A stretch of 64,000 nucleotides of DNA, taken from NCBI GenBank assembly GCA_963665275.2, contig CAXXIN010000019.1, forward strand, positions 169,444 through 233,443, in the 5' to 3' direction. The DNA is from Negativicutes bacterium (GTDB lineage: Bacteria > Bacillota > Negativicutes > UBA1444). The notes under the pieces are model-generated. The model saw only the letters and a list, made by a program, of their open reading frames with translations. It made no database searches and had not been told where the DNA came from. The first letter of the stretch is position 1, and each line of letters opens with the position of its first letter. A program made the translations under genes and the position numbers. Of this stretch, positions 2,920 through 22,689 are shown in pieces.

Positions 2920-3172
2920 GCCGTCCCATCCTTCCATTTGCATTAATTCCAATCTTATTATAATATATACCGGCGAGGTCGAAAAAGGCAACAGGTTCGA
3001 TCGGCGCAATTTTTTTTCTGACGGCGGTGAAAATCCAGCAGGATTCTCTCTGTCGTTATCAAATATTAAACAAATATCAGATCGCAAGAATTACGTCCCC
3101 AAACGCATGGATGTCTGATATACTGTAGGTACTGTTGCAATGCATTTTACGACAGGAAAGGTGTCATGCTGC

Positions 3173-3769
3173 ATGAGCAAAACAACGGCCCCAGCTGCTG
3201 CTAAAGTAGCGACTCCCGTCATCGACAACGCAATCGTTGAGAATCTGATTCAGCTGCTCAAGCTCAAGAATCACCGGATTTGCCAGCACAGCTTTCAGGT
3301 GGCGAACTATGCCGTCAGCATTGCGGCCCAGATGCGTCTGCCCAAGGAAGAGATCGAGCGAATCCGTATGGCGGCGGTGCTGCATGACATCGGACAGCTC
3401 TCTGTCCCCAACGCCATCATGTCCAAACTCCCCTATCTCAGCGCGCGCGAAACGAGCCTGTATCGAGGGCATTGCAATGCGGGAGCGGCGATGTTGGAGA
3501 ATATTGAGGCTTTCACCGAATTCATTCCCTATATCCGTTTCCACCATGAACAGTGGGACGGCAAGGGATATCCGAAGCGCCTGAAGGGCGTGAACATTCC
3601 GCTCGGCGCCCGCATCCTCGCGGTCGCCAACTATTACGACCGTTTCATCAACCCCTGCGAGCAAAACTGGGTCAAAACGAAAAAAGAAGCGGTGAAGGAA
3701 CTCAACAACATCGCCGGCACCGTCCTCGACCCCGAAGTCGTCAAAGCCTTCATCAACGCTTTGGGGTAG
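3173..3769 (+). CDS. HD-GYP domain protein (c-di-GMP phosphodiesterase family)
   Basis: 'LHDIG', 'HHEQWDGKGYPKRLKGVNIPLGARILAVA' motifs. Confidence 0.9.
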   Translation: MSKTTAPAAAKVATPVIDNAIVENLIQLLKLKNHRICQHSFQVANYAVSIAAQMRLPKEEIERIRMAAVLHDIGQLSVPNAIMSKLPYLSARETSLYRGHCNAGAAMLENIEAFTEFIPYIRFHHEQWDGKGYPKRLKGVNIPLGARILAVANYYDRFINPCEQNWVKTKKEAVKELNNIAGTVLDPEVVKAFINALG

Positions 3770-3797
3770 GTGACAGGCACCGGTTTCTCTGACATTT
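3769..3797 (+). repeat. RAYT-associated hairpin site, copy A (GGTGACAGGCACCGG + TTTCTCTGACATTT)
   Basis: Overlaps last base of HD-GYP stop codon; reverse complement of the other six copies, including the AAATGTCAGAGA extension. Confidence 0.85.
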
Positions 3798-3814
3798 ATG
3801 GATGAATTGTCCAG

Positions 3815-4474
3815 TTAGCCGTTGGCTAGAGCGAGTGCATGTACGCTGGATGCGCCGGTCTGGCGCAGAACGAGGGCGCATTCTTCGAGGGTGCGGCCAG
3901 TGGTGACGATATCATCGACGAGCAGAATCTGACGACCTTGGATGAGATCTGGCGCGTTTACGAAAAACGCGCCTTTTATATTTTCTGCCCGTTCCCGTCG
4001 ATCCAGCTCCCATTGCGGCGAAGTGGGCCGTCGCCTCTGGAGCAGATCGCCTCCCCACTCCAGCCCCTGCCCGACGCACCAGTCGTGAAAGAGCAGATCA
4101 ACTTGGTTGTAGCCACGTTCCTCCCTCCGGCTCACCGACAGGGGCACGGGGATTGCCAATGCGCCACAGAGAGGTAATCCTGCCAGTTCCACCTCATCCG
4201 CCATCGACAGCAGCCATGCCAAAGGCGCCGCGTTTCCGCGGCGCCTTTGAAATTTCAGTCCATGCAGCAGGCTGCGGACCGCGCCCCTATATCCGGTGAG
4301 CACCTGGCAACTCTCGATATGCCGCATCCCCCGCTCCGCCACATCCAGTCGCCGCGGATTCCACAGTTCATTCAGGCAGCTCGCGCACCAGGCGCCACCT
4401 CTGCCGACTTCCGCCCCGCAGCCTGGGCAGTTGGGCGGAAATACCAGCTGCAGCAGGGTCTGCAGCCAGCTCAC
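3815..4474 (-). CDS. comF: ComF family competence protein (Zn ribbon + PRTase-like)
   Basis: 'FPPNCPGC..CASC', 'RGYNQ', 'LLVDDIVTTGRTL'. Confidence 0.92.
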   Translation of the reverse strand: MSWLQTLLQLVFPPNCPGCGAEVGRGGAWCASCLNELWNPRRLDVAERGMRHIESCQVLTGYRGAVRSLLHGLKFQRRRGNAAPLAWLLSMADEVELAGLPLCGALAIPVPLSVSRREERGYNQVDLLFHDWCVGQGLEWGGDLLQRRRPTSPQWELDRRERAENIKGAFFVNAPDLIQGRQILLVDDIVTTGRTLEECALVLRQTGASSVHALALANG

Positions 4475-6621
4475 GTGAAATCTTCCTGCCGCAGGCGTTC
4501 CGCCAGGAGCGAATGACGGCGGCGCGTCCGGTCGTTGGAAACCGCCGTGCCGAGCGCCGCGCTCGACCCCACCAGGATGACGCGCTGCTTCGCGCGGGTG
4601 ATCGCCGTATACAGCAGATTCCGCTGCAGCATGACATAGTGCCCGCTCACCAGCGTCAGGATGACGATGGGATACTCACTGCCCTGGCTTTTGTGCACGC
4701 TCATCGCGTACGCCGGCGCCAGCGAATCCAGCTCGCTCCGGTCATACGGGACATCACCCTCTGGGTAGCGGACGAGCACCATCTCGTCATCCATGTCCGC
4801 CACACGGCCGATGTCGCCGTTGAACACGCCTTTGTCGTAATCGTTGCGGGTCTGCATGACCTTGTCGCCGACCCGGAAAATCTTCCCGGCGTGCGCCGCC
4901 TCAAGCTTGCCCCGCATCGGCGGATTCAGCGCCGCCTGCAACACTTTATTCAAGTTTTCGACGCCGCAGGCCAGCCGATGCATCGGCGAGAGCACCTGCA
5001 CATCGCGTCCGACATTCACACCTTCATTCGGCAGTTCCTGCTGACACAGCTGCACGACCAGCGCCGCCGCCGCTTCATCATTCTCCACTTCCCGCAGCTG
5101 AAAATCGCGGGTCGTCCGCACATCCGGAAACTGTCCCCGATTGATCCGATGCGCATTCACCACGATCGGACTTTGCCCCGCCTGACGGAAGATCTCGGTC
5201 AGGCGCACCACCGGTGTCGTCTCTGACCGGATAATATCCTTCAGCACCGAACCCGGTCCCACCGCCGGCAGCTGATCGACGTCGCCCACGAGTACGATGC
5301 GGCAGCCGTTCGGCGTCGCCCGCAGCAGATAATACATTAAGAGAATATCCATCATCGAAACTTCGTCCACGATGATCACGTCAGCATCGATCGGGTTTTC
5401 TTCGCCCCTTCCAAACACCGCCCGCCCACCGCGCGACCCTGCCGCTTCCAACAGTCGGTGCACCGTCAACGCTTCGCGCCCTGTCGCCTCCGACAGCCTT
5501 TTGGCGGCACGGCCCGTCGGCGCGGCCAGCACGATCTTGCAGCCCTGCATCGACAGCACGTTCAGCACGGCCTGCACTGTCGTCGTTTTGCCTGTGCCCG
5601 GTCCGCCTGTCATGACCAGCACGCCGTGGCTGCTTGCCGCCCGCACCGCCTCGCGCTGCGCTTCAGCCAGCTGGATTCCCTTCTCCCGTTCGAACTTCTC
5701 CGTCATCGCCGCGACATCCGCTTCTTTCAGTTGTTTCGCCGAATCGCGCAGTTTGAGCAGGCGCGCCGCCACCTGGCGTTCCGCGTGATACAGATGATCA
5801 GGATAAATCAGCGTGCCGCCGCGCGCATCTTCCTTGGCGATCGTTCCCTGCCGCAGCAGCTGGGACAAAACTTCCGCCACGGAATAACTATCGCAGCCCA
5901 GCTCTTTCACCGCCGCCTGCACGAGCACATCCTCCGGCACACAGGTGTGGCCGGTATCCGCCGTGCCAAGCAGCGCATAACGGATTCCCGCCGCGATCCG
6001 GGCGAAATCCTCCGCCTGGGCGCCGCAGGCTAGTGCGATCCGGTCCGCGATGCGAAATCCGATGCCGTCGACCTCTTCCGCCAGCCGATACGGATCCTGC
6101 TCGATCACCGGCACGGCTTCCTCGCCGTACACCGTGTGGATTCTGCGGGCGTACGCGCCGGGAATCCCGTGGGACTCGAGGAAGAACATCAGATCCCGCA
6201 GCTCCGCCTTCGAAGAAAAAGATTCCACGATCATTGCCAGTTTCTTGGGTCCGATCCCTTCGATCTCCAGCAGATGCCGCGGCTCCCGCTCGAGGATATC
6301 GAGAGTCTTCAAGCCGAACCGGGCCACCATGCGAGCCGCCATGGCCGGTCCGATCCCCTTCACAGCCCCTGAGCCGAGGAAACGTTCGATGGCAGGCAGC
6401 GTTGCAGGCAGGATACGGCGCATCCCTTCGCCGCGGAACTGCCGTCCATACTTCGCATGAACCGTCCACGTACCGGATACTTCGATCTCTTCACCTGGCA
6501 GCGGCGCTCCCACGCGCCCCGCCACCACTACCATCCCCTGCTCTGTTTTCAGCCGAAACACGACATATTCGTCCTGCCCCTGAAAGGTTATATTTTCGAC
6601 CACTCCGGCCAATGTATCCAT
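4471..6621 (-). CDS. recD2: ATP-dependent RecD2-like DNA helicase
   Basis: HhH 'KGIGP' repeats, Walker A 'GGPGTGKTT', 'DEVSM', 'GDVDQLP', 'HKSQGSEY', 'LLYTAITRAK'. Confidence 0.95.
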   Translation of the reverse strand: MDTLAGVVENITFQGQDEYVVFRLKTEQGMVVVAGRVGAPLPGEEIEVSGTWTVHAKYGRQFRGEGMRRILPATLPAIERFLGSGAVKGIGPAMAARMVARFGLKTLDILEREPRHLLEIEGIGPKKLAMIVESFSSKAELRDLMFFLESHGIPGAYARRIHTVYGEEAVPVIEQDPYRLAEEVDGIGFRIADRIALACGAQAEDFARIAAGIRYALLGTADTGHTCVPEDVLVQAAVKELGCDSYSVAEVLSQLLRQGTIAKEDARGGTLIYPDHLYHAERQVAARLLKLRDSAKQLKEADVAAMTEKFEREKGIQLAEAQREAVRAASSHGVLVMTGGPGTGKTTTVQAVLNVLSMQGCKIVLAAPTGRAAKRLSEATGREALTVHRLLEAAGSRGGRAVFGRGEENPIDADVIIVDEVSMMDILLMYYLLRATPNGCRIVLVGDVDQLPAVGPGSVLKDIIRSETTPVVRLTEIFRQAGQSPIVVNAHRINRGQFPDVRTTRDFQLREVENDEAAAALVVQLCQQELPNEGVNVGRDVQVLSPMHRLACGVENLNKVLQAALNPPMRGKLEAAHAGKIFRVGDKVMQTRNDYDKGVFNGDIGRVADMDDEMVLVRYPEGDVPYDRSELDSLAPAYAMSVHKSQGSEYPIVILTLVSGHYVMLQRNLLYTAITRAKQRVILVGSSAALGTAVSNDRTRRRHSLLAERLRQEDFT

Positions 6622-6768
6622 CGTTACGTTTCTCTCCGATTTCTTCGTCTGCCAATGAAATAATTATTATTTTTATCAGCAGGATTTTCGATAATTATAT
6701 CGTATCTAATAAAGCGTGTGATATGCCCCAAACATATTTCAGGAAAGAAGAAGGAGCCAGCCCGCATC

Positions 6769-6915
6769 ATGAAAGAATGCATGTATTCCTACCATTACCA
6801 CCGGAACCGCGCCATCGTGCGCAGAGACAGAACAGGGACCCGCTTATTATTCGGAATTCTGGGACTCGCAACGCTTTACGGCGTTTATTGCCTCAGCACA
6901 CTGGTCCGATCCTAA
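6769..6915 (+). CDS. Small (48 aa) putative single-pass membrane protein
   Basis: AAGGAG RBS upstream, hydrophobic 'LLFGILGLATLYGVYCL', followed by a terminator. Confidence 0.5.
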   Translation: MKECMYSYHYHRNRAIVRRDRTGTRLLFGILGLATLYGVYCLSTLVRS

Positions 6916-6936
6916 AGTTTTACCAGCGTTATAGTC

Positions 6937-6970
6937 AAAACCGGAGGATGAAAACCCTCCGGTCTTTTTT
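6937..6970. terminator. Bidirectional intrinsic terminator
   Basis: AAAA-CCGGAGG...CCTCCGG-TCTTTTTT between convergent genes. Confidence 0.8.
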
Positions 6971-6974
6971 TATT

Positions 6975-7643
6975 TTATTCCACATATACGATCTTGTGTT
7001 TGATGGCGAACAACACCGCCTGCGTCCGATCCGTCACTTGAATCTTGCGAAAAATATTCGTCAGATGGTTTTTGACCGTTTTTTCGCTGAGAAACAATTC
7101 GCGGGCAATCTCCGCATTGCTCATGCCTTTGCCGACGAGCCGCAACACCTCGATTTCTCGGACGGACAATCGGTCGCTATCGAGTGTACCCGGTGGCGAA
7201 GGCGCCAACTTCTGCTCTTCCTGGCTGGTAATACCGCGAAACAACTTCTTGGTGAGGGAAGGCTCGACATAAGATTCTCCGGCATGCACCCGTCGGATCG
7301 CCTGCACCATCATCGAAGGCTCCACATCTTTCAGCAGGTATCCGGCCGCGCCGCTCTGGATCATTTTCATCATATAGTTTTCATCGTCGTGAATCGTCAA
7401 CGCCAGGATCCTGATCTCCGGGCACAGTTCCCGCAGCTTGGCAGCCACCTCAATGCCGGTCGCCTTGGGCATGTTGATGTCGAGCAGCAGCAGGTCCGGG
7501 CGCAGCGCGATAGCCTGGGTGACTGCTTCTTCCCCGTCGGCAGCCTCCCCGACGATCTCAAAGTCTGGTTCCAATGACAAAAAGTTTCTAATACCCTGGC
7601 GCAACAAAGGATGATCATCCGCGATGAGAATACGAATTGGCAT
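6975..7643 (-). CDS. NarL/DegU-family response regulator (REC + LuxR HTH)
   Basis: 'ILIADDH', 'LLDINMP', '[30 protein letters not shown]'. Confidence 0.93.
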
Positions 7644-7664
7644 GTTGCCCACTCCTCCCATCCG

Positions 7665-9011
7665 CTATTTCACGATTTTTGCTTTCAAAAAGATCACAAC
7701 TTCTGTTTCATCCTTGGTTGAAGTCACGCTTTGGAACAGTTTGCCGAGAATCGGCAGGTCGCCGAGGAAAGGGACCTTGTTGACACCTTTGATATCAGAA
7801 GTGGAAATCAATCCGCCGATTACCAACGTGGCGCCATCCTTCATCCGTACGTTCGTCTGCGCCGAACGGGTCTTGATCTCGTAGGCCGTCGTGCCGGATA
7901 TTACGACTTTACTGGGAATGGACACTTCGACAAAAACGCTGGCGGTGATGTTCTCGTCCTCGTTGATGCGAGGCACGTAGGCCAAAGTAATGCCGGCATT
8001 CTTGTAAGTTGTGGTATTGGTAGTTGTTCCATTGGTGGTGGTCGGCGTAACGATCGGCAACTGGTCGCCGATAAAGATGGTCGCCTTGTTGCCATTGAAC
8101 GTCATGACGTTCGGTCGCGCCAGGATTTTGGCATCTCCGTTGGTAATGAGCGCATTGATCTTGGCCGTGACGCCGCTAAGACCGAAAGTATATTGTTTCC
8201 CATCGCCAGCCGTAAAAACTGCAATAGGGAGCGAGGCAACGGTTGTTGAACTGCTTGAAGAGGAGGATTCGGGTTGCGTCTGGGATACCGTGCCCCAAGT
8301 CCAGTCGATCCCCAGTTCCTTGGATGCCGATTTGGAAAGGTTGATCACCTGGGCTTCCAACAAAATCTGTTGGTAGGGAACGTCCAGTTCTTTGAGCAGC
8401 TGCCTTACTTTCTCTATCTGTTCCGGCGCACCGTAAGCGATGATCGAGTTGGTCGAGGCGTCGGTATTGATGACCAGTCCCTTGATGCCTGAGCTGTTGG
8501 CGCTGGAAGCGGTCGCTCCGCCGGCCGTCGTTTTCAGGGTCCCGGCATCCGATCCGCTGCTGGCCCCGGGGTTCTCCACCGCGAATTCACTGTCGCTCTT
8601 GCCGCCGCCGACGATGATGTTCTTGATATGGTCAGCCCTGGCATATTTCAGCGTGAAAACGTTCGCCTGACTAAACCCTTTCTCCATCTTCTCCTGAGTG
8701 GAAAAAACGAGGACATTGCCTGTCCGATAGAGACTGAGACCCTTTGTCTTCGTAATAATTTCCAACGCCGAATCAAAGGGAATGTTCTTGAAATCGACGC
8801 TGATGCGGCCGGTGACAGCATCATCGATAACCACATTGACCCTGCCGATTGACGCCAATCCCGTCAGCACATCCCGAACATCGGCATCCACTACGGACAT
8901 CGAAACCATCGGACTATACGCGTAAGCGAACGCCGTAGCTCCCGTTGACAGCAGCCCGACGAAACAGGCCACACAAAGAATCATTTTCCACCTTTTGAAG
9001 CCTGAATTCAT
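7665..9011 (-). CDS. Outer-membrane secretin (PilQ/GspD family)
   Basis: Signal peptide, STN-like domain, 'LDVPYQQILLEAQV', 'KVPFLGDLPILGKLFQS..ETEVVIFL'. Confidence 0.9.
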   Translation of the reverse strand: MNSGFKRWKMILCVACFVGLLSTGATAFAYAYSPMVSMSVVDADVRDVLTGLASIGRVNVVIDDAVTGRISVDFKNIPFDSALEIITKTKGLSLYRTGNVLVFSTQEKMEKGFSQANVFTLKYARADHIKNIIVGGGKSDSEFAVENPGASSGSDAGTLKTTAGGATASSANSSGIKGLVINTDASTNSIIAYGAPEQIEKVRQLLKELDVPYQQILLEAQVINLSKSASKELGIDWTWGTVSQTQPESSSSSSSTTVASLPIAVFTAGDGKQYTFGLSGVTAKINALITNGDAKILARPNVMTFNGNKATIFIGDQLPIVTPTTTNGTTTNTTTYKNAGITLAYVPRINEDENITASVFVEVSIPSKVVISGTTAYEIKTRSAQTNVRMKDGATLVIGGLISTSDIKGVNKVPFLGDLPILGKLFQSVTSTKDETEVVIFLKAKIVK

Positions 9012-9015
9012 TTCA

Positions 9016-9537
9016 TCACTGTCCCATCGTTAATACTTTGGTCCCTGAGGGGCCTTCGAGCGTCACGGAGTTGCCGCCGATGGAGGCGACCCTGTAGGAA
9101 CCAGCCGATTCACCAACCCGATAGGAGCGGCTAATGGTTCCCTGTCTGAGGATAGCCACCCGGGAACCTTCTCCGACGATGACACCGGTCAGCTTCGGCA
9201 ACGGTCCGGCGCTAAAAGCTTGCCCCCCTTTGGTCGGCGAAGCGCCGTTAGGAGGATTGCTGCTGGAAACTGCCAACAACGCCGCATACTCGGCAGGCGG
9301 CGAAAAAATATCGCGCGTCACCTGGCCAACTGTTGAGGTTCCTTGCGGCATCATCGGTGTGCTCGTATTAATGACACTCGTGCCTGGCTTTCCAACAGGA
9401 GTCGCGGCTGCCGGGACAACGGGATCTGGCGCTGCCACCGGCGTCGGGGTGCTGGGTTCATATAGCAGCAGCGCCGCGGCAATCGCCGCCACACCCACTA
9501 GGACAATGAGGAACAGTCTTTTCTTGCTATCTTTCAT
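9016..9537 (-). CDS. Membrane-anchored pilus/T2SS accessory protein (PilP/GspC-like)
   Basis: N-terminal TM, Pro-rich linker, C-term beta domain 'KLTGVI...AIL...YRVGE...YRVASIGGNSVTL', upstream of secretin. Confidence 0.6.
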   Translation of the reverse strand: MKDSKKRLFLIVLVGVAAIAAALLLYEPSTPTPVAAPDPVVPAAATPVGKPGTSVINTSTPMMPQGTSTVGQVTRDIFSPPAEYAALLAVSSSNPPNGASPTKGGQAFSAGPLPKLTGVIVGEGSRVAILRQGTISRSYRVGESAGSYRVASIGGNSVTLEGPSGTKVLTMGQ

Positions 9538-9686
9538 ACCTGTGGCATATCCCCTTTGTGGAACTGTCGATAATAGATATTGTATATACTTTAAAATACT
9601 TATTCAACCATAAGAGGAAAACTCCTGTATTTTGTGGATTATTTTATGCATCGCATCGAAACATCCGCCGTCGTCAAGCCCGATTT

Positions 9687-11150: not shown

Positions 11151-11228
11151 GGGACGCACCTCCATATTCATCAGTATAAAAAACACTGAGAAGGGTAACG
11201 GGAAAAGGGACGCTCGATGCGGAATTTA

Positions 11229-12221
11229 TTATTTGTCGCCGTATCCACCCGGATGGCTGCGGTGCCAGTCCCAGGCTGTGCGCAGGATCGTGTCGACATC
11301 GCTGTAACGCATCCGCCAGTTGAAATCCTGCTGGAACTTCGCCGAAGACGCCACCAGTACGGCAGGGTCGCCGGCGCGGCGCGCGGCCTCCACCACCGGG
11401 AAATCAACGCCGGTGATTTTCTTGGCTTTATCGATCACTTCCCGCACCGAAAATCCGGTCTGCGAGCCGAGATTATAAGTCCGCGACTCACCGCCAGCCA
11501 GCAGATGCTCGATCGCCAGCACATGGGCGCTCGCCAGATCCGTCACATGGATGTAATCCCGGATGCAGGTGCCGTCCGGCGTCGGGTAATCGGTACCGTA
11601 CATCGAGATCGCGGTGCGCTGGCCAAGGGCAGTCTGCAGGATCAGCGGGATCAGGTGGCTCTCTGGAGTATGGTCTTCGCCCACGCCGCCCGCCGGCAGT
11701 GCGCCTGCCGCATTGAAATAGCGCAGAACGACATACGAAAATCCGTAGGCCATCGCGAAATCCGCCAACATTCCCTCAATGATCAGTTTGGTCCGTCCAT
11801 AAACGTTCGTCGGCCTTAGCGCTGCATCCTCGCGGATCGGACAGGATTCCGGTTCACCGTAAACCGCCGCCGTCGACGAGAACACGATTTTTTTGATATT
11901 CGCCTGGTTCAATGATTCCAGGAGCGACAGCGTCGCTGCCACATTGTCCCGGTAATATTTCGCGGGATTCACCATCGACTCGCCGACTTCGCTCGCCGCT
12001 GCGAAGTGCATTACCGCATCGATCGGAAATTTCGCGAACGTCTCCGCCAACAGCGCCGCATCGCGGATATCGCCCTGGACGAAAGGAACTCCAGCCGGCA
12101 CAGCGGCTCGATGGCCCTTCACCAGACTGTCGAACACCACGACATCATGCCCCGACGCCTTCAACTCATGTACCGCGTGAGAGCCGATATACCCAGCCCC
12201 ACCCGTCACCAATACCTTCAT
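11229..12221 (-). CDS. galE: UDP-glucose 4-epimerase
   Basis: 'VTGGAGYIGSH', 'FSSTAAVYG', 'YGRTK', 'LRYFNAAGA', 'DGTCIRDYIHV'. Confidence 0.96.
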   Translation of the reverse strand: MKVLVTGGAGYIGSHAVHELKASGHDVVVFDSLVKGHRAAVPAGVPFVQGDIRDAALLAETFAKFPIDAVMHFAAASEVGESMVNPAKYYRDNVAATLSLLESLNQANIKKIVFSSTAAVYGEPESCPIREDAALRPTNVYGRTKLIIEGMLADFAMAYGFSYVVLRYFNAAGALPAGGVGEDHTPESHLIPLILQTALGQRTAISMYGTDYPTPDGTCIRDYIHVTDLASAHVLAIEHLLAGGESRTYNLGSQTGFSVREVIDKAKKITGVDFPVVEAARRAGDPAVLVASSAKFQQDFNWRMRYSDVDTILRTAWDWHRSHPGGYGDK

Positions 12222-12249
12222 ACAATCGCCTCGCAAATTCTACTTTCTT

Positions 12250-12284
12250 CCATAAAAGGAAGGATTCCCGGTGCCTGTCACCGG
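12250..12284 (-). repeat. Hairpin site copy B (left direct repeat)
   Basis: CCGGTG-CCTGT-CACCGG at 12268-12284, 6-bp stem / 5-nt loop. Confidence 0.9.
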
Positions 12285-12338
12285 CTGCGCACTTTCGTTG
12301 CGGCAGCCATTGAAGTATAATAAATTTGGGTGATGATG

Positions 12339-12572
12339 ATGAAACAGCCGATTGATCTAAAAACTGCAATGGAACAAACTCGCTGCAAAACGGTCGGACT
12401 TCGCGCGGCCTCCATTGTTGTTCCTGAAAAAAAGCCACGTGTGAAACCTCGAAAACCTAGCGAAACGTTGGCGTTGTGCAGGGCAGTCGTTTGGGCAGTT
12501 CTAGAGGCCAAACGCTCCGGTCGGTTGGTGAAACTCTCCCCTGTCGGTTATCGGCTGCATTGGGAGGAATAA
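12339..12572 (+). CDS. Small basic hypothetical protein, translationally coupled to the NTase (possible antitoxin/partner)
   Basis: TAATG stop/start overlap at 12570-12574; TATAAT at 12316-12321 upstream. Confidence 0.6.
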   Translation: MKQPIDLKTAMEQTRCKTVGLRAASIVVPEKKPRVKPRKPSETLALCRAVVWAVLEAKRSGRLVKLSPVGYRLHWEE

Positions 12573-13147
12573 TGGACGAACTCAAACAACTTCTGCACGA
12601 CTTGCCGCAGGAAAAGTCAATTTTAGAACAACAACTCACAGTCTCGGGCATTATTGCCGACGCGTTCAAACCGTTTGGCGTTTTCCCTGTCGTTGTGGGC
12701 GGGGCTGCAGTTGAATTTTACACGATGGGAAGCTACACCACCCGTGACATCGATCTTATCGTGGAAGACCCGGAATTTATTAAAGATGTAATGACCGGTC
12801 TGGGCTTTAAAAACGATGCTGGGACCTGGTATCTGCCCGAAAATCCCGCTATCATCGTTGAATTTCCTAAAGGGCCTCTGGCCGGCGACTGGAAAAGAGT
12901 TCAACCAGTTGAGTTGCCGAATGGACACACAGCTTATCTGCTCTCTTTGGAAGATATCTTGATTGACCGCACGCTCGCCGCAAAATACTGGGCTGACGGG
13001 TCCGAGGAATGGGTGCGCTTCATGATGGTTGCACACTATGAAGAAATCGACTGGAAATACCTGCGCCGAGTTGCAACCCGTGAACTGTGCCTCGACACTC
13101 TGGAACGCGCCAGGAACTGGGCCCGCCGCAAGCGCAAAAAGCTATAA
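12572..13147 (+). CDS. Nucleotidyltransferase-fold protein (DUF6036/AbiEii-like)
   Basis: 'VVVGGAAVEFY....TRDIDLI' (GG + DxD Pol-beta motifs), 'SLEDILIDR', 'IDWKYL'; GGAGG RBS. Confidence 0.8.
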   Translation: MDELKQLLHDLPQEKSILEQQLTVSGIIADAFKPFGVFPVVVGGAAVEFYTMGSYTTRDIDLIVEDPEFIKDVMTGLGFKNDAGTWYLPENPAIIVEFPKGPLAGDWKRVQPVELPNGHTAYLLSLEDILIDRTLAAKYWADGSEEWVRFMMVAHYEEIDWKYLRRVATRELCLDTLERARNWARRKRKKL

Positions 13148-13711
13148 TTACTTTCCGGTGCCTGTCACCGGTTTTTTTTCGTCTTCTTGCACCGAAGCAT
13201 TCACATAGTTGATCCAATCAAGCGGCAATTCAATAGGTGGTTGCGACAATATCGACCACGCAGGACTCGGGAGCCTTCGCTCATGCGCAGACGACCACCG
13301 CCAGTCATCGCAGGATTTACACAATCCGGCCCGCACTGGATTGGCCTCAACATAACGCATCAGAGTAAACATCTGAGCATCATCTTTGACCAGCAGCGAT
13401 TTATATCTTCCCTGCCATACATGCCCGACACTCTCATATTTTTCCCGATACCGATGCGAATGCGTAGACAAAAGCCAGTGCATACCACGGGACATATTGT
13501 CTGCCTCCATCGGCCATAACACAAAATGAAAATGGTTGGGCATCAAACTGTAGGCCAATACCCGCACTGGGAATTTTTCTTGCGCCGATTGCATTAAATC
13601 CAGGAAGTCTACATAATCCTGATTTGTTTGGAAAACAGCTTCCCGATTATTTCCCCGATTCAATACGTGATAAATAAATCCATCACATATGGACCTGGCC
13701 ATCCGAGGCAT
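13148..13711 (-). CDS. Y1 HUH transposase, REP-associated tyrosine transposase (RAYT)-like
   Basis: 'MPRMAR', 'YHVLNRGNNR', HUH 'LMPNHFH', 'GHVWQGRYKS', catalytic 'RYVEANP', 'WRWSS'. Confidence 0.92.
   Translation of the reverse strand: MPRMARSICDGFIYHVLNRGNNREAVFQTNQDYVDFLDLMQSAQEKFPVRVLAYSLMPNHFHFVLWPMEADNMSRGMHWLLSTHSHRYREKYESVGHVWQGRYKSLLVKDDAQMFTLMRYVEANPVRAGLCKSCDDWRWSSAHERRLPSPAWSILSQPPIELPLDWINYVNASVQEDEKKPVTGTGK
13155..13179. repeat. Hairpin site copy C inside the RAYT 3' end; followed by T8 on + strand
   Basis: CCGGTGCCTGTCACCGG-TTTTTTTT; encodes the 'PVTGTG' tail of the transposase. Confidence 0.9.
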
Positions 13712-13762
13712 ATGCGCCACTTCTTTCGTTACGCCAAAGCTCGACTTTTTTTACATACATAT

Positions 13763-13795
13763 CCATAAAAGGGAGGATTGTCGGTGCCTGTCACC
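13763..13795 (-). repeat. Hairpin site copy D (right direct repeat), 14 nt after galU stop
   Basis: CGGTGCCTGTCACC at 13782-13795. Confidence 0.9.
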
Positions 13796-13809
13796 CCTTC
13801 CCCCCACAT

Positions 13810-14697
13810 TCATAGGTCGGTTTCCCGGCCAACGGTTTTCATCAGAAAGCGCAGGAACGGATCACGCAGATCAGGACGCTTGAGGGCGAAGTCCACCGTC
13901 GCCTCGAGGAATCCCTGCTTGTCGCCCACATCGTAGCGGCGCCCTTCAAATTCATAGGCATAGACCGGCTCGATCTCCGAAAGCTTCTTCAGCGCATCGG
14001 TCAGCTGAATCTCGCCGCCCCGACCTGGCTCGGTCTTCTCCAGAATCCCGAAGATTTTCGGAGAAATGATATAGCGTCCGAGCACCGCGAGTCGGGACGG
14101 AGCTTCCTCGATCGAGGGTTTCTCCACCAGATCATCGGCCCGCCACAGGCGCTCACTCACCGCAGTCGGCTTCACCACGCCATAGCTCGACACCCGGTCT
14201 TTCGGCACTTCCTGTACGCCCAACACACTGCCGCCGCAGCTGTCGTAAACATCCATCAGCTGTTTCAGCACCGGCACTTCGGCGTCCATGATATCATCGC
14301 CCAGCAGCACCGCGAACGGTTCGTCGCCGACGAAATGCTTGGCGCAGAGCACTGCGTGCCCCAGACCCTTCGGCTCCTTCTGCCGCACGTAGTGAATCGT
14401 CACTCGCGAGAGTTCCTGCACCAGTCCGAGTAAATCATATTTCCCCTGGGCCTTCAGCGTCATTTCCAGCTCGATCGCGCGGTCGAAGTGGTCTTCGATG
14501 GCGCGTTTGTTGCGGCCGGTGATGATCAGGATATCCTCAATGCCCGAATCGATCGCTTCTTCAATAATGTACTGGATACAGGGCTTGTCCACGATCGGCA
14601 GCATTTCTTTGGGTTGTGCCTTGGTCGCAGGCAAAAAACGTGTCCCGAGTCCCGCCGCCGGAATGACCGCCGTTCGAATACTAGGCTTTTTCTGCAT
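13810..14697 (-). CDS. galU: UTP--glucose-1-phosphate uridylyltransferase
   Basis: 'AVIPAAGLGTRFLPATKAQPKEMLPIVDKP', 'GEIQLTDA'. Confidence 0.97.
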   Translation of the reverse strand: MQKKPSIRTAVIPAAGLGTRFLPATKAQPKEMLPIVDKPCIQYIIEEAIDSGIEDILIITGRNKRAIEDHFDRAIELEMTLKAQGKYDLLGLVQELSRVTIHYVRQKEPKGLGHAVLCAKHFVGDEPFAVLLGDDIMDAEVPVLKQLMDVYDSCGGSVLGVQEVPKDRVSSYGVVKPTAVSERLWRADDLVEKPSIEEAPSRLAVLGRYIISPKIFGILEKTEPGRGGEIQLTDALKKLSEIEPVYAYEFEGRRYDVGDKQGFLEATVDFALKRPDLRDPFLRFLMKTVGRETDL

Positions 14698-16090: not shown

Positions 16091-16113
16091 GAGCCAACCT
16101 CCCTAATTCTCTC

Positions 16114-16146
16114 AAAAATGTCAGAGATCCCGGTGCCTGTCACCGG
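16114..16146 (-). repeat. Hairpin site copy E, supplies the TGA stop of manC
   Basis: AAAAATGTCAGAGATCCCGGTGCCTGTCACCGG; TCA at 16140-16142. Confidence 0.9.
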
Positions 16147-17528
16147 CCTGCACGGCCGTAAACGTCCTCGAAACGCACGATGTCGTCTTCTCCCAGATAG
16201 CGGCCGCTCTGCACCTCGATGAGGACCAGGGGCACCTTGCCCGGATTGGCCAGTCGATGCTTCACCGTCTGCGGCACGAACACACTTTCATCATCGCACA
16301 CCAGTTGTTCCCGATCGCCGATCGTCACCAGCGCGGTCCCGCTGACCACCACCCAGTGTTCGCTGCGATGATGGTGCATTTGTAGGCTCAGCACCTGAGC
16401 TGGATTCACGACAATCCGCTTGATCTTGTAGTCAGGCCCTTCGCCCAGAATTGTGTAGTTGCCCCATGGTCGATAATCAGTCAGATGCTCGCTGGCCTCA
16501 CGCCGTCCTTTGGCTTTCAGCCGCGCCACCACATCCTTCACTTTCTGCGACTCGCCTTTTTTCGCCACCAGGATAGCATCCGCCGTCTCGATGACAATCA
16601 TGTCTTCCAGCCCAATGCCGGCTACCAGGTGTCGGTGCGACAGCATTAGCGTATTGTTGCAATCAATATTGATGCAGTCGCCTTGTACCGCATTGCCGGC
16701 TTCATCCTTGCCCAGCACATCGTAGATCGCGTCCCAGGATCCAATGTCGTTCCAGTAAGCCGCCAGAGGGATGACGAGTACATCGGCCGCCTTCTCCATG
16801 ATACCGTAGTCGATCGACACATCAGGCATCTGCTCGAACTGCTCCAGCACCGTCTCCACCGGTTGGGCTGTCAATGCGCTGATGGCAGGCTGTTGCGCGG
16901 CCAGTTCCTGCAAAAACCGTCCCATCGTGAAGGCGAACATGCCGGAGTTCCAGTAATAATTTCCTGCCGCCACATACTTCTCGGCTGTCTCACGGTCGGG
17001 TTTCTCGCGGAAGGAATTCACCACGAACGCCCCGTTGAAAGAATCACCGGCCTGAATGTAGCCGTAGCCAGTCTCAGGCGAGGACGGCTTCACGCCGAAC
17101 GTCACAATACTGCCTGTCTCCGCCAGTTTCACGGCTTCCAGCACTCCGGCGGCGAATACGTCAACCGGGCGGATCACATGGTCGCAGGGAGTGACGAATA
17201 GCACTTCTGAATCGGCGACCCCCAGTTTGTCACGGCAAAAAGCAGCCGCCAAAGCGATGGCCGGGGCGGTGTTGCGACCTGCCGGCTCCAGTGCCACCTG
17301 CGCCTCCGAAGCTCCGCAGGAAGCGAGTTCAGACTTCACCAAATATTCGTGCATCTGATTGGTGATGACAACGAGATTTTTCGCCTCCGTTACGGCCAAA
17401 AACCGCTGCACGGTCTGGACAAACAGGGACTCTGCGCCGGTCACTTTCAAAAACTGTTTCGGGAACCGCGCACGGGAAAGCGGGAACAGGCGGGTGCCGC
17501 CGCCGCCAGCAAGCAAAATAATTTTCAT
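16140..17528 (-). CDS. manC: Mannose-1-phosphate guanylyltransferase / mannose-6-phosphate isomerase
   Basis: 'LAGGGGTRLFPLSR..PKQF', 'GRNTAPA', 'RPWG', 'LSLQMHHHRSEHW'. Confidence 0.95.
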   Translation of the reverse strand: MKIILLAGGGGTRLFPLSRARFPKQFLKVTGAESLFVQTVQRFLAVTEAKNLVVITNQMHEYLVKSELASCGASEAQVALEPAGRNTAPAIALAAAFCRDKLGVADSEVLFVTPCDHVIRPVDVFAAGVLEAVKLAETGSIVTFGVKPSSPETGYGYIQAGDSFNGAFVVNSFREKPDRETAEKYVAAGNYYWNSGMFAFTMGRFLQELAAQQPAISALTAQPVETVLEQFEQMPDVSIDYGIMEKAADVLVIPLAAYWNDIGSWDAIYDVLGKDEAGNAVQGDCINIDCNNTLMLSHRHLVAGIGLEDMIVIETADAILVAKKGESQKVKDVVARLKAKGRREASEHLTDYRPWGNYTILGEGPDYKIKRIVVNPAQVLSLQMHHHRSEHWVVVSGTALVTIGDREQLVCDDESVFVPQTVKHRLANPGKVPLVLIEVQSGRYLGEDDIVRFEDVYGRAGR

Positions 17529-17757
17529 CGGAATCAATTCCTCTCCGTCATCTTTTTTGCTGCGATTTATTCATTGAATATGCAGCCAATATACATCCGG
17601 CCACGACTTATAACGTATTTTATTTCGTCAAGTTGTCCCATATTTCCTGCCAGTTTTTCCATACCGGCGATAAATTAATGCCCCTACTCAGCTTCCTGTG
17701 ATATAATTTTCCAAGAGTTTTCAGTAAAAATTTATCCGGGGCGGGGGGAATCTGCAC

Positions 17758-18855
17758 TTGAGTCGAAAATCTGCACCGCATCAAAACATTCTCATCATCC
17801 ACACGCATGGCGGCATGGGCGACCTGCTGCTGTCTTCGGTTTTGGCGGAAGCTATGCACCGCTGCTACCCCGGCTGCCGCGTAACTTTTTGGCCGAATCA
17901 GCGCTTCGCGGCGCTGCTCGAGCATCACCCGTTCATTGACGCCTGCCTCGACCTTGACCCCTCCGCCTCGCTTTTGACCAAAGCCCGGTGGCTCCACGCC
18001 GAACACTTCGACACCGTCCTCGTTCCTTGGTCGGTCAGCTCTCATGCGTGGCTCACTGCGCTCGCCGGTATCCCGACCCGCGTCGGACAGGGCGGTCGTC
18101 TCACCTACAGTTTTCTCTTCACCCACCCGGTTCGGGTGCGCTCCGTATACGGCGACATCACCAGCCACTGGACGGACATCCAGCTCGACTACGCCCGCGC
18201 CATCGGCTGCGAGACTCCGTCTGACCTCTTGCCTGTCGTCATCACCACCCCACAGGAAAAAGCAACGGCCGCCGCCTTTTTGCCAAGCGTCGGCATCTTG
18301 GGCGAACGGCCGGTCTGCGGCCTCCATATCTGCAAAGGTCTGGCGGTGGACGAACAGCGCTGGCCCATCGACCGCTTCGCAGATATCGCCGCCGGAATGA
18401 TGCGCAAAGGGTTCGACGTCGTACTGACAGGCACCGCCAGCGAAAATCCGCTCACCGCCAGAGTGCGGGAACTGGCGCAAGCTCAACAGCCGGTAGAAAC
18501 CGATCGTGCGGATACACACGCCCGCCCCCCCCTGATCTTCGACCTTGCCGGCGTCTGTTCGCTGCGCGAGACGGCTGCCGTTCTCGAACGCATGAACGTC
18601 TTCATCTGCCCGGACACCGGAACCGGCCACCTGGCCGCCGCCCTCGGCGTCCCGGTCGTCTCCATATTCCCCCTGCGCTCCGACATACCGGCCCGCTGGC
18701 GGCCAGCCATTGCCGGATCCCGCATCATCCGACCCACGAATTACGAGTGCACCGGCCCCTGTGTGAAGGAAACCTGCCCCCGCTTCACCTGCCTGCTGCA
18801 CATCGATGCAGGCGAAGTGGTCCGGGCGGCAGAAGAAATCGCAAAACGGGTGTAA
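17758..18855 (+). CDS. Glycosyltransferase family 9 (LPS heptosyltransferase-like)
   Basis: 'GGMGDLLLS', 'RWPIDRF', 'CPDTGTGHLAAALGVPVV'. Confidence 0.88.
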   Translation: MSRKSAPHQNILIIHTHGGMGDLLLSSVLAEAMHRCYPGCRVTFWPNQRFAALLEHHPFIDACLDLDPSASLLTKARWLHAEHFDTVLVPWSVSSHAWLTALAGIPTRVGQGGRLTYSFLFTHPVRVRSVYGDITSHWTDIQLDYARAIGCETPSDLLPVVITTPQEKATAAAFLPSVGILGERPVCGLHICKGLAVDEQRWPIDRFADIAAGMMRKGFDVVLTGTASENPLTARVRELAQAQQPVETDRADTHARPPLIFDLAGVCSLRETAAVLERMNVFICPDTGTGHLAAALGVPVVSIFPLRSDIPARWRPAIAGSRIIRPTNYECTGPCVKETCPRFTCLLHIDAGEVVRAAEEIAKRV

Positions 18856-18887
18856 TGAAAGTCGCGGGGCAACTGTCAGAAAAATTT

Positions 18888-18928
18888 AAACAGGAGGTGT
18901 GAAATCTATCTTTCACACCTCCTGTTTT
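18888..18928. terminator. Bidirectional intrinsic terminator
   Basis: AAACAGGAGGTGTGAAA...TTTCACACCTCCTGTTTT between convergent genes. Confidence 0.85.
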
Positions 18929-18974
18929 CTCATACAAACCCCGACGGAGATCCCGTCACTCGTCTTTACTCGGA

Positions 18975-19988
18975 CTATTTTGTTGCTTTCTTCCAAGTCC
19001 GAGACAGGTCCAGAACGCAGCCTGCCCACGACAATCCGACGCCGAACCCGATGGACACTACCTTTTTCAGGGTGGTTGCATCCACGGACTGCAGAATTTC
19101 AGCCAGCGCCAGCGGGATCGTGCTGGAAACGGTGTTCCCATACCGATCCGGCTTATTCCAGAAAGGCAGGTCGTTCAGTTTGCATTTGTGCTGAATCGAC
19201 TCCAACATGAACCGATTCGCCTGATGAAAAACATAATAGTCGACGTCTTCCCGCTTCAGACCTGCGGCTTCCAGCACTTTTTTCAAGGTCTTGGGAACCA
19301 CATCCTGAGCAAAAGAAATGACCGATCGCCCATTCATATAGAGATTGTAATTGGTTCTTTTGTTGCCGGCCGAATCAACAGTTTCGATTTCGGCAGTCGC
19401 GCCACCCGGTTCGCGCATTCCCCCGACCGGCACGATGATATCGGGGCCTCCGGATCCATCCGTCCCGAAAACAAAGGCACGCAGTCCGTCCTGCGCCGTA
19501 TCTTCCACCTCGAGAAGCGTCGCTGTCGCCGCGTCGCCGAAGATCGCCCGAGCTGCTGCGTCTTGCGGATGGGTCCATTTGCTGTAGGTTTCCGCCGTCA
19601 ACAACAACACATGCTTCGCCTGGCCCGTTTCCAACAGCCCTTTGGCGACAGACAAGCCAAAAATATAGCCTGAACAGCCCAGGTTCAAATCAAACGCGCC
19701 GCAATTCCGGGATATCCCCAAACGGTGCTGCAACAGGCAAGCCGTCGTCGGCAGAAAATAATCAGGCGACTGTGTGCACAAAATAATGAAATCTATTTTT
19801 GAACGATCAATGCCATAATCCGAAAATAAATTTTCTGCGGCGCAAACAGCCATATCCGAGGAGCATTCGTCCGGCGCCGCAATATGCCGTTCGTAGATCC
19901 CTGTTTTCTTTGTAATCCGGGAGTCGGCATCATTATATTCGATCTGACGGGGTACATAGGTGGAAATCCCTTTAATATAAGCTTTCAT
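18975..19988 (-). CDS. Ketoacyl-ACP synthase III (FabH-like)
   Basis: Cys-His-Asn triad: 'NLGCSG', 'FHQAN', 'YGNTVSS'; 'GFGVGLSW'. Confidence 0.9.
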   Translation of the reverse strand: MKAYIKGISTYVPRQIEYNDADSRITKKTGIYERHIAAPDECSSDMAVCAAENLFSDYGIDRSKIDFIILCTQSPDYFLPTTACLLQHRLGISRNCGAFDLNLGCSGYIFGLSVAKGLLETGQAKHVLLLTAETYSKWTHPQDAAARAIFGDAATATLLEVEDTAQDGLRAFVFGTDGSGGPDIIVPVGGMREPGGATAEIETVDSAGNKRTNYNLYMNGRSVISFAQDVVPKTLKKVLEAAGLKREDVDYYVFHQANRFMLESIQHKCKLNDLPFWNKPDRYGNTVSSTIPLALAEILQSVDATTLKKVVSIGFGVGLSWAGCVLDLSRTWKKATK

Positions 19989-20138
19989 TTTCAACCCTTT
20001 CCTATCGTAATCATGCAGCAAGAAAAAACACGAAGCCCATCCTCGTGTTCATGTGTCCTGTTAATATTATAACTTGAATCCGAGATAAAGCTCAACAAAT
20101 AAATTCCAGCCGTCCTCTTCATCCATCATTTGTAAAAT

Positions 20139-20167
20139 ATGTCAGAGATCGCGGTGCCTGTCACCGG
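20139..20167 (-). repeat. Hairpin site copy F, supplies the TGA stop of the YdcF gene
   Basis: ATGTCAGAGATCGCGGTGCCTGTCACCGG; TCA at 20161-20163. Confidence 0.9.
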
Positions 20168-20925
20168 CTTCCGCTGCGAACTTTCAGTGCAGCCAGCCCC
20201 AGATACTCTTTCAGCGCGATACTGGTTCCCCGCAACGCTGACCCTGATGGCACCCAGCTGGTGGCATTCCAGTAGGAACCCCGTGGCACATAATATCCCA
20301 CTGGATACGGCGTCGCCACTACCCCGGCCTGTTTGAACTCCTCCACCGAACGCGCCATATGAAAGGCGGATGTCACCAGCACCGGCCGGGACAGGCCGCG
20401 TGCTTTGAGTATCTCGGCGGAAAAAATCGCATTCTCGGTCGTATTCAGGCTGCGGTCTTCCAATAAAACCTTGTCGGGCGCCATCCCGAGGCTGACCAGG
20501 ATGTCCCGCATCACGACCGCTTCCCGGCCATCGCCACGGAACACCTCTCCGCCCGAAGTCACAACCGGCCAACCCGTCCGGCGGTGCAGCACATAGGCGC
20601 CAATGATCCGCTGCGCCGGCACATCACCCACCTGTCCTACCCAACCCTCCGGCATCGGCACGTCCGCCATACTGCCGCCGCCCAGGAGAATGATCGAGTC
20701 CCCCTCCACCTGTAGCGGCAAAGGATGTCGATATTCCAGCGGTCGCAGCAGCGCTTCGGAAACCGGCTGAATCGACGCCGCATACATCAGAGCGGCAATC
20801 ACACAGGTCATTCCCGCCAGACCCCACGACTTCCGCCGCAGCCGCCACGCCAGCCACACCAGCGCCACAACGAAGCAGGCCGGAGGGAGAACCCAGGAGT
20901 AGAGAAATTTTATCGCATAGATCAT
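20161..20925 (-). CDS. YdcF/ElyC (DUF218) family envelope protein
   Basis: Two N-terminal TMs, 'IILLGGG', 'VTSGG', 'EDRSLNTTENA', 'LVTSAFHMARS', 'KEYLG'. Confidence 0.9.
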   Translation of the reverse strand: MIYAIKFLYSWVLPPACFVVALVWLAWRLRRKSWGLAGMTCVIAALMYAASIQPVSEALLRPLEYRHPLPLQVEGDSIILLGGGSMADVPMPEGWVGQVGDVPAQRIIGAYVLHRRTGWPVVTSGGEVFRGDGREAVVMRDILVSLGMAPDKVLLEDRSLNTTENAIFSAEILKARGLSRPVLVTSAFHMARSVEEFKQAGVVATPYPVGYYVPRGSYWNATSWVPSGSALRGTSIALKEYLGLAALKVRSGSR

Positions 20926-20951
20926 TTAGCTTCATCTCCATTATCTGTCAG

Positions 20952-20982
20952 AAATGTAAGAAATCGCGGTGCCTGTCACCGG
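20952..20982 (-). repeat. Hairpin site copy G, 9 nt after AbiEii stop
   Basis: AAATGTAAGAAATCGCGGTGCCTGTCACCGG. Confidence 0.9.
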
Positions 20983-22516: not shown

Positions 22517-22548
22517 ACGCACCACCTCCTTGTCTCGGATAAAAACAC

Positions 22549-22595
22549 ATTTCCACATAGTATGTCGAATTCCTGCCGACATACTATGTGGAAAT
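22549..22595. promoter_or_regulatory. Perfect 19-bp inverted repeat, probable AbiEi autorepression operator
   Basis: ATTTCCACATAGTATGTCG-N9-CGACATACTATGTGGAAAT just upstream of abiEi. Confidence 0.8.
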
Positions 22596-22689
22596 TCGAA
22601 AAGTTTTTCTCGCCAAATTAATGGGTCGGCATAAAAGCACCCCTTCATTTTTGGGATGCTTTCTTGGAGTCAGTCAGTGCGAAAACTCT

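Follow-up and report, generated by a model that had tools for sequence, protein, structure and literature searches.

The stretch of DNA considered here, referred to throughout as the window, comprises 64,000 nucleotides (nt) of a Negativicutes bacterium (C19:169444-233443, that is, contig C19 of an assembly of 3.97 Mb in 20 contigs, here called G000). It carries a gene for a Y1 HUH protein and, around that gene, repeated copies of a 14-mer, GGTGACAGGCACCG. We consider it probable that the gene is a TIRYT-type relative of the REP-associated tyrosine transposases (RAYTs; REP, repetitive extragenic palindromic), belonging with TnpAY1 subclass 2.1 and with Group 1 of Bertels et al., and that it is accompanied by its cognate end-repeat, which by a change of one base became a mini stem-loop and spread as a non-autonomous element of about 50 nt into the spacers at gene ends. 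The evidence that carries this account is the association of gene and motif across phyla, the conservation of the motif core next to a diverged tail, and the presence or absence of copies between close strains. RAYT-like genes flanked by terminal inverted repeats (TIRs) have been named TIRYTs, and the units that they form TIRtrons, with GGGGWSAS as a common sequence (Di Nocera et al., 2013, PMC3733652). The pairing of gene and repeat is thus already described as TIRYT/TIRtron, and has barely been studied. A preliminary description of the window, made from its sequence, did not recognise this pairing and took the motif to be closer to an integron attC site than to a REP, a placing that is revised below.

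The motif core beside Y1 homologues in many phyla

Related loci were collected with a profile built from 30 relatives of the Y1 protein; a search for related loci with the single protein as query returned no relative. The profile gave 80 loci, with named metagenome-assembled genomes from the Omnitrophota, Planctomycetota, Desulfobacterota, Nitrospirota, Elusimicrobia and Campylobacterota among others. In many phyla the Y1 homologue is flanked by the core GGGGACAGGC, which in the window reads GGTGACAGGC. The usual layout places AAAAGGGGACAGGCTACTTTTT some 25-35 nt ahead of the ATG and its reverse complement, AAAAAGTAGCCTGTCCCCTTTT, at the 3' end, where the TAG of the repeat is often the stop codon; many relatives within the clade have GTAGCCTGTCCCC at the stop codon. 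The core was counted in the 73 of 80 loci whose flanks reached at least 150 nt upstream and 100 nt downstream. GGGGAC was present within 150 nt upstream in 63 of these and GTCCCC between -30 and +100 of the stop in 60, with both in 55 and neither in five, against a background of 0.7 per kb. The stricter GGGGWSAS was found upstream in 37 of the 73 loci, downstream in 36 and on both sides in 28. These counts support the proposal of the preliminary description in linking the Y1 HUH gene to the motif. An 11-mer common to both flanks of the homologue was found in 65 of the 74 loci with sufficient flank, as compared with 36 of 74 mismatched pairs of loci, the latter figure being as high as it is because the same word recurs between loci. 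Sequences closer to that of the window also occur: GGGGACAGGCACC, one base off the window motif, lies upstream of the gene in two loci, and a search with GG[GT]GACAGGCACC matched three (L061, L087 and L111). At 11 distant homologue loci (L005-L015, 31-40% identity) a simple listing of hairpins revealed nothing in common, and the signal was seen only in the closer clade.

At two loci from unrelated organisms (L060 and L070; purF about 47% identical by tblastx) the Y1 homologue is flanked by the exact palindrome of G010, a genome of the same genus as G000 that is described below. The genomes of these loci, G043 and G044, hold 99 and 73 matches to GGNGACAGKCNCC respectively, which often form inverted pairs with 25-70 nt between them. 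Ornithinibacillus salinisoli (Bacillota; G041, loci L136 and L143) holds 89, arranged as 40-nt palindromes with the arms GGTGCCTGTCACC and GGTGACAGGCACC, and its Y1 homologue (profile E 4.4e-32) has 40-nt palindromes on both sides, one of them over the stop codon. This family is REPIN-like and has the 13-mer of the window in common. A reversed control pattern gave 0-3 matches as against 73-99, and in the high-copy relatives the repeat is spread over many contigs. Because the core flanks homologues in many phyla and expands where it is self-complementary, the motif and this clade of Y1 genes, judged from sequence, travel together across phyla; by the same measure the self-complementary versions of the repeat have multiplied like a REP. 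Conservation of the core across phyla, taken with an expansion to 73-99 copies when it is self-complementary, suggests a way in which terminal repeats may give rise to REP-like families.

The Y1 HUH protein

From the ATG at 13711 the Y1 gene encodes 187 amino acids (aa); the start given in the list of open reading frames (ORFs) is a GTG at 13720, the range being 187-190 aa. A protein collection calls the same gene (P0003) at 115 aa, 61% of the ORF, and the clade alignment favours 187 aa. The protein matches PF01797 over residues 15-126 (E 5.8e-15) and has the hallmarks of the Y1 HUH superfamily, with NHFH as the HUH motif, the catalytic tyrosine in RYVEANP, and H63, H65 and Y123 as invariant columns. 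The HUH motif, the tyrosine and all 35 invariant columns of the clade alignment are intact; VWQGR represents the W[EQ] motif and YVEANP fits Y---NP. With the NCBIfam model REP_Tyr_transpos (NF047646) the protein scores 78.5 bits against a cut-off of 80, and its sole match in the PDB is TnpA-REP (4ER8, E 2.5e-4). No Pfam domain was found past residue 126. At its C-terminus the protein is about 35 aa shorter than most relatives and the clade tail LGLESTxRPRGRP is missing. The closest relative in the databases (P0002, 87% identity) likewise ends in KKPVTGTGK; the remaining relatives, about 1,500 at 54% identity or less, come from many phyla. The gene is single-copy in G000, in which the two other PF01797 matches are classical IS200, and no motif of the 14-mer type was found at the IS200 copies of G000, G006, G007, G009 and G010.

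A constant core with a diverged tail

The 14-mer occurs in seven exact copies in the window, starting at 3769 on the forward strand and at 12269, 13156, 13782, 16131, 20152 and 20967 on the reverse strand (Table 1). A chance origin of these copies was rejected, as none of 100 shuffles of the window reached seven. With up to two mismatches there are nine matches, against a shuffle mean of 0.56, and again none of 100 shuffles reached that number. Past 21 kb there is no full 14-mer in the window and the sole match, at 55364, has two mismatches. The whole of G000 holds 12 exact copies, eight of them on C19; allowing up to two mismatches raises this to 54 matches, of which 4 have one mismatch and 38 have two. 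Alignment of the flanks showed that ten copies are one element, namely the seven of the window together with C15:24157, C19:117620 and C19:133606, the last of which has one mismatch in the 14-mer. The element usually consists of CC, the 14-mer and a tail of about 35 nt, roughly nGATCTCTGACATTT..ATGGATGA; the tail is missing from the copies at 13156 and C19:133606. Nine of about ten copies are on C19, and seven of the ten lie within 17 kb around the Y1 gene. Over the ten copies, mean pairwise identity is 98.6% in the 14-mer and 54% in the first 25 nt of the tail, which argues that the core is kept constant while its surroundings drift. Three more exact 14-mers in G000 (C7:701845, C12:105616 and C16:293747) lie in coding frames, where they specify VTGT peptides, and are tail-less. 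Orthologues of the C7 and C16 sites in five and two relatives respectively keep VTGT with one to four synonymous changes. Chance was estimated at about 0.05 matches per word, from 38 two-mismatch matches among 819 neighbouring words, and the three coding 14-mers exceed this expectation.

As single-stranded DNA (ssDNA) the motif can form the stem-loop GGTG-ACAGG-CACC, with a stem of 4-6 bp across the copies. Folding is better than in shuffles for the copies with a 6-bp stem (z -4.0 and -4.6) but not for those of 4-5 bp (z -0.9 to -1.7). Thus the hairpin proposed in the preliminary description stands as a stem, and as a fold better than shuffles for the 6-bp copies alone. The same description had given the seven positions of the 14-mer, the lack of a full copy beyond 21 kb and a flank common to several copies, and all of these were confirmed, the flank proving to be longer than claimed (about 35 nt); the genome-wide count that it called for yielded the 12 exact 14-mers and ten element copies reported above. 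A candidate outward promoter in the element, GTGACA-17-CATATT, was flagged at one of the seven copies alone and no claim is made for it.

In agreement with the preliminary description, six of the seven window copies lie in the sense orientation on, or no more than 14 nt from, a stop codon; the exception, at 12269, lies between divergent starts. The inner TGA of the motif (..cGG TGA) serves as the stop codon of manC and DUF218 in the window, and it also ends a gene on C15 and a uvrB-like gene elsewhere in G000, as well as the KAS III gene on the metagenome contig L133. The internal TGA of the element terminates at least four genes. Two wastewater runs, described below, are without 16 nt of window 13802-13817, and a reading of the frame makes it most likely that galU there ends in the TGA of the motif (..ETGKG*) and not in a stop of its own. 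On the forward strand the copy at 13156 reads CCGGTGCCTGTCACCGG followed by T8, a terminator-like site for the neighbouring nucleotidyltransferase (NTase) pair. Any effect of the copies on transcripts, through 3'-end hairpins and this one terminator, would be secondary and is putative.

Turnover of the element between close strains

Contigs of two wastewater runs (X1 and X2), mostly 90-99% alike to the window, were used for comparison between strains, the strains compared being about 95% and about 87% identical. In X1 and X2 the gene order is the same where covered, and the order epimerase-NTase-Y1-galU is kept; one X1 contig covers 11779-13972 with 102 differences. A joint in the runs, 16145>18990, has 10 letters between its sides and a side of 33 nt, and on our reading would represent an extra copy of the element abutting the KAS III stop. 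Joints with a side below 30 (5778>21937, 19545>22866 and others) were treated as noise and set aside. X2 has 7 nt where the window has 20100-20160, and so is without the copy at the DUF218 stop. At the loose ends at 16113, 20952 and 20987 the element is seen in different surroundings. On the metagenome contig L133, which is 87% identical over the 3' part of KAS III, that gene ends in a copy of the element, beyond which other DNA replaces GT9. The additional copy at the KAS III stop is common to X1, X2 and L133, and KAS III then has a copy on both sides. Presence of the element therefore differs at two sites between close strains with the genes the same where covered and, since the strains differ in copies and not in gene content, the element turns over faster than the genes.

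Pattern scans for the motif in metagenomes and in genomes returned two and three stretches respectively. L135 has a single motif site; the matches in L134 and L137 were set aside, as they look like chance in a conserved gene and the tail of the element is absent. A segment of about 110 nt on L133 (611-721) matches 19 places on ten G000 contigs at 73-81% identity and is possibly a common protein domain.

Comparison with genomes of the same genus

Among 41 related genomes searched, the exact 14-mer was found 12 times in G000, once in G006 and in none of the other 39. A Y1 homologue was found in none of the 11 same-genus genomes, either by protein or by clade profile, and each of these genomes has 0 or 1 exact 14-mer. 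Matches to the Y1 protein at 26-40% identity were found in 14 genomes of other genera of the class.

The window was aligned at the nucleotide level with four same-genus genomes (G010, G007, G005 and G006). In G010, G005 and G006 just 0-40 nt separate the epimerase start from the galU stop, and window 12226-13817 is therefore an insertion. The Y1 gene is absent from this slot in all four relatives. The NTase pair is in the same slot in G007, there without the Y1 gene and bracketed by TTAATTGGGGACAGTCCCCAATT and a terminator, GGGGGAC-gcaa-GTCCCCC; it was not found there in G010, G005 and G006. Relative to G007, window 13141-13805 is a single insertion with two co-oriented copies at its edges. 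The copy at 3769 is an insertion of 49 nt relative to G006 with the genes unchanged, and that at 16131 is a small insertion with gene content unchanged against all four relatives. The slot between GT9 and DUF218 (window 17758-20161) differs in gene content from genome to genome, with KAS III in G000, MNT/HepT in G010 and, in G007 and G005, other genes over about 1.8 kb and about 6.5 kb respectively; in the window it also contains a strong terminator with a 17-bp stem at 18888-18927. The AbiE pair and one element occupy what is a 3-nt spacer between DUF218 and a MORN gene in G005, a genome in which the same pair lies about 30 kb from DUF218. By our own tally, a copy is present at five of seven synteny breakpoints as compared with two of six other spacers of at least 10 nt, a difference that is suggestive though not significant.

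A sister palindrome, TAATTGGGGACAG[GT]CCCCAATTA, is found within the genus. It has the ACAGG centre in common with the window motif, with a stem of GGGG/CCCC instead of GGTG/CACC, and it is absent from G000 and from 29 searched genomes of other genera. G010 holds 22 sister palindromes, of which 13 lie on the contig that is syntenic with the window; they are found 2-20 nt past ORF ends in both orientations. At the HD-GYP end, G010 carries a palindrome of its own with a T-run after it. Of classical IS200 this genome has a frameshifted copy only, which is motif-free. An MNT(Polbeta)/HepT pair in the GT9-DUF218 slot is flanked by sister palindromes in G010 (C51:29894-36570, L026) and in G002 (C74:1481-6000, L049). 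A DUF234 ATPase of G010 also lies between two sister palindromes, with a MazE/Doc pair following, and in G003 AbiE adjoins one.

A proposed origin of the element

The gene is flanked in most relatives by GGGGACAGGC(TAC) as an inverted pair. A change of GGGG to GGTG in the window would turn this sequence into the small stem-loop described above, and the 14-mer with its tail of about 35 nt would constitute the non-autonomous element of about 50 nt now present in about ten copies. On the model of IS608 TnpA and E. coli TnpA-REP, the enzyme may recognise the motif on ssDNA and cut beside it by means of its tyrosine, and such cutting could lead to the small element being copied or moved into short spacers at gene ends. 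It is on this analogy that we infer binding, cleavage and strand transfer by the window protein. We propose that insertions which clip gene ends would be tolerated because the element carries an early TGA.

Several observations weigh against this account. The two copies flanking the window gene are direct while those of the clade are inverted, and the upstream copy is 70 nt from the Y1 ATG as compared with about 25-35 nt elsewhere in the clade. The copies lack a GTAG foot and their stems are of merely 4-6 bp. The region is dense in copies, which are present in 7 of about 13 spacers, and a Y1 gene between two of them is for that reason unremarkable in itself. The Y1 protein may be inactive, as the conserved C-terminal 35 or so aa are missing. 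No biochemistry on any TIRYT was found in PMC3733652 and PMC6006769, the two papers that use the name. The main caution comes from the sister palindrome, which is present in six of the 11 same-genus genomes, none of them with a detectable Y1 homologue, and two of the genomes without a detectable homologue, G010 and G007, are rated 100% complete. It follows that near-identical copies are possible without the enzyme, or that the gene escaped assembly; in the six genomes, either the Y1 gene has been lost or is unassembled, or the repeats are kept or spread in its absence. The co-occurrence of motif and transposase expected in the preliminary description is accordingly upheld for the exact 14-mer, with 0-1 copies in the 11 genomes without the Y1 gene, but not for its sister palindrome.

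Alternative explanations

That the copies are host elements unrelated to the Y1 gene, such as 3'-end RNA hairpins, terminators or protein-binding palindromes of an envelope-polysaccharide locus, spread by gene conversion or by another enzyme with the Y1 gene as a bystander, seems to us improbable. Such a role agrees with the sister palindromes of G010, a genome without a Y1 homologue, which cluster in the syntenic region and lie 2-20 nt after ORF ends, and also with the terminator-like copy at 13156 with its T8 and the palindrome and T-run at the HD-GYP end of G010. However, the same core flanks Y1 homologues in many phyla and reaches 73-99 copies where the flank is self-complementary, the exact 14-mer is specific to the one Y1-bearing genome of the genus, and the window copies have no T-run in the sense orientation and, where the stem is of 4-5 bp, are no stabler than shuffles. 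IS200/IS605 elements have hairpins on the same strand at both ends, a layout that recalls the single insertion at 13141-13805, bounded by two co-oriented copies, relative to G007. An autonomous IS200/IS605-like insertion sequence (IS) of about 650 nt, made up of hairpin, Y1 gene and hairpin and with the solo copies as its remnants, is nevertheless very improbable, given that the Y1 gene is single-copy, that the 3' copy is tail-less and lies inside a truncated ORF, that solo copies have one hairpin only, that the two true IS200 copies of G000 are motif-free, and that the protein has Y---NP and not Y---Q (PMC6006769).

The preliminary description had proposed that the hairpins are attC-like sites at which the HUH enzyme excises and inserts gene cassettes, defence genes included, as in an integron. 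Five of the seven copies do edge segments that are not at that place in the relatives (the Y1 gene, the NTase pair, KAS III and the AbiE pair), a leader, two genes and a 3' element make up the AbiE insert, which occupies a 3-nt spacer, KAS III has a copy on both sides in related strains, and the sister palindromes enclose MNT/HepT in G010 and G002 and the DUF234 ATPase in G010 and abut AbiE in G003. Yet two of the seven copies are solo insertions with genes unchanged; the core genes HD-GYP, galU, manC, DUF218 and uvrB carry copies; between strains the element is gained or lost at two sites while the genes, where covered, are unchanged; the NTase pair of G007 sits in the same slot with a palindrome of its own at a different position; in high-copy relatives the repeat is spread over many contigs; and there is neither a PF00589 match on C19 nor GTTRRRY at the copies. 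The expectation that breakpoints would fall at the motif thus held as a count of five of seven breakpoints, but not as a significant excess over the two of six other spacers, and the cassette step itself was not sustained: we regard it as unlikely. If true, it would amount to a new route of gene capture, which the present evidence does not carry. We are as doubtful of a related possibility, that the TIRYT enzyme and its end-repeat are a single-strand recombination system which seeds gene-end sites at which small accessory units (toxin-antitoxin pairs, AbiE, KAS III and the gene of the enzyme) would land or be exchanged. The bracketing of accessory units by each genome's own palindrome in G000, G007, G010, G002 and G003 is compatible with such a system and, if it were real, the envelope-polysaccharide locus would be an HUH-driven analogue of the chromosomal integron. 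Taking the gene, as we prefer, to be a TIRYT whose end-repeat has spread, the locus provides a compact case for the study of TIRYT function, with an intact catalytic core, an invariant 14-nt site, about ten traceable copies and strains that differ by single copies.

Genes of the region

The gene names used in the preliminary description agreed with the domain searches, Pfam confirming HD_5, Y1_Tnp, DUF218, AbiEii and the DUF6036 NTase; manC was correct, and the Pfam domain of galU is NTP_transferase. Other genes of the region identified with Pfam or NCBIfam are ComF-like, RecD2, secretin, PGI, GalU-type, phosphomannomutase, ManC, a GT9 glycosyltransferase (+ strand) and DUF218. As listed, the AbiEii ORF (from the GTG at 22074) and the AbiEi-like ORF overlap by about 220 nt, and because of this overlap the true AbiEii start is probably further downstream.

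Table 1. Element copies and selected genes of the window (positions in the window)
Feature	Position	Strand	Remarks
Element copy 1	3769..3816	+	14-mer 3769-3782 and tail; HD-GYP TAG stop (3767-3769) overlaps first G of motif
Element copy 2	12232..12282	-	14-mer 12269-12282 and tail; between divergent starts of epimerase and small ORF; left edge of 1.5-kb insert
Element copy 3	13155..13179	-	14-mer 13156-13169, no tail; in last 8 codons of Y1 ORF (..KKPVTGTGK*)
Element copy 4	13745..13795	-	14-mer 13782-13795 and tail; 14 nt past galU stop, 70 nt ahead of Y1 ATG
Element copy 5	16095..16146	-	14-mer 16131-16144 and tail; inner TGA is manC stop (16140-16142)
Element copy 6	20100..20167	-	14-mer 20152-20165 and tail; inner TGA is DUF218/ydcF stop (20161-20163)
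Element copy 7	20926..20982	-	14-mer 20967-20980 and tail; 11 nt past AbiEii stop, directly ahead of DUF218 start
Y1_Tnp gene	13148-13711	-	Pfam PF01797
HD-GYP	3140-3769	+	Pfam HD_5
Epimerase	11229-12236	-	Pfam/NCBIfam scan
Small ORF and DUF6036 NTase	12330..13147	+	Small ORF 12330-12572; NTase ORF 12476-13147, likely ATG 12563; accessory pair between copies 2 and 3
KAS III-like gene	18975..20021	-	In hypervariable GT9-DUF218 slot; elsewhere in genome in G010 and G007
AbiEii and AbiEi-like	20992..22648	-	AbiEii 20992-22074, AbiEi-like 21854-22648; inserted between DUF218 and MORN gene

Comparison with known systems

The attC sites of chromosomal superintegrons are homogeneous and species-specific, and in this the window motif resembles them. 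Like attC sites, the copies are short, structured and co-oriented at the 3' ends of genes, some of them near accessory or toxin-antitoxin units. However, they measure 14-17 nt plus a tail as compared with 57-141 nt, they are also carried by core housekeeping genes, and in the contigs compared no movement of whole cassettes was seen. As to an integron recombinase, G000 has ten PF00589 matches, none of them on C19, and none was found among 20 ORFs scanned at 3-24 kb. The core sites of attC are RYYYAAC/GTTRRRY; GTTRRRY occurs 73 times in the window, fewer than in shuffles, with none inside the 14-mer and one (20090-20096) near a tail. From IS200/IS605 elements, which have a Y---Q motif and multiple copies of the whole element, the locus differs in its Y---NP and its single gene copy.

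The likeness to REPs and REPINs with their RAYTs (E. coli TnpA-REP, Pseudomonas) lies in a single-copy, domesticated-looking Y1 gene flanked by its own palindromic repeat, which is species-specific and found also in intergenic spacers after genes, with eight further copies of the element here. The window copies differ from these in having no 5' GT[AG]G foot, their flanks being CC...G, in a stem of 4-6 bp and not a long imperfect one, in number (ten as against hundreds) and in occurring as single units instead of inverted doublets.

In the literature searched, the word TIRYT is used by PMC3733652 and PMC6006769 alone, and a search by sequence, using 10-mers and 13-mers of the core, returned unrelated eukaryotic papers only, with the core not found printed for bacteria. 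Some TIRs have been described as self-complementary, forming moderately abundant families present as dimers or clusters (PMC3733652). Most TIRYTs fall into TnpAY1 subclass 2.1, the second largest group of the family, present in 14.9% of surveyed strains and characterised by NHVH or NH[YF]H, W[EQ] and Y---NP, a median length of 238 aa and a C-terminal helix-turn-helix (HTH) domain (Quentin et al., 2018, PMC6006769). That study reports finding no REP-like sequences close to subclass 2.1 genes, in contrast to the 73-99 copies in the self-complementary relatives reported here. The window protein has no HTH-type domain at its C-terminus and falls about 35 aa short of the length of its own clade, the window motif GGTGACAG is one base off GGGGWSAS (mismatch at base 3) with flanking copies that are direct, and the copies are distinguished by their location on or beside stop codons, seven of ten within 17 kb. 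In other respects the gene is like those of the TIRYT/TIRtron, TnpAY1 subclass 2.1 and RAYT Group 1 systems, being single-copy with NH[YF]H, WQ and Y---NP, and it lies between repeats with a core that fits or nearly fits GGGGWSAS. The low copy number of its repeat, about ten, is likewise close to the approximately 12 occurrences per genome reported for the 16-mers flanking Group 1 RAYTs (Bertels et al., 2017, PMC5581495).

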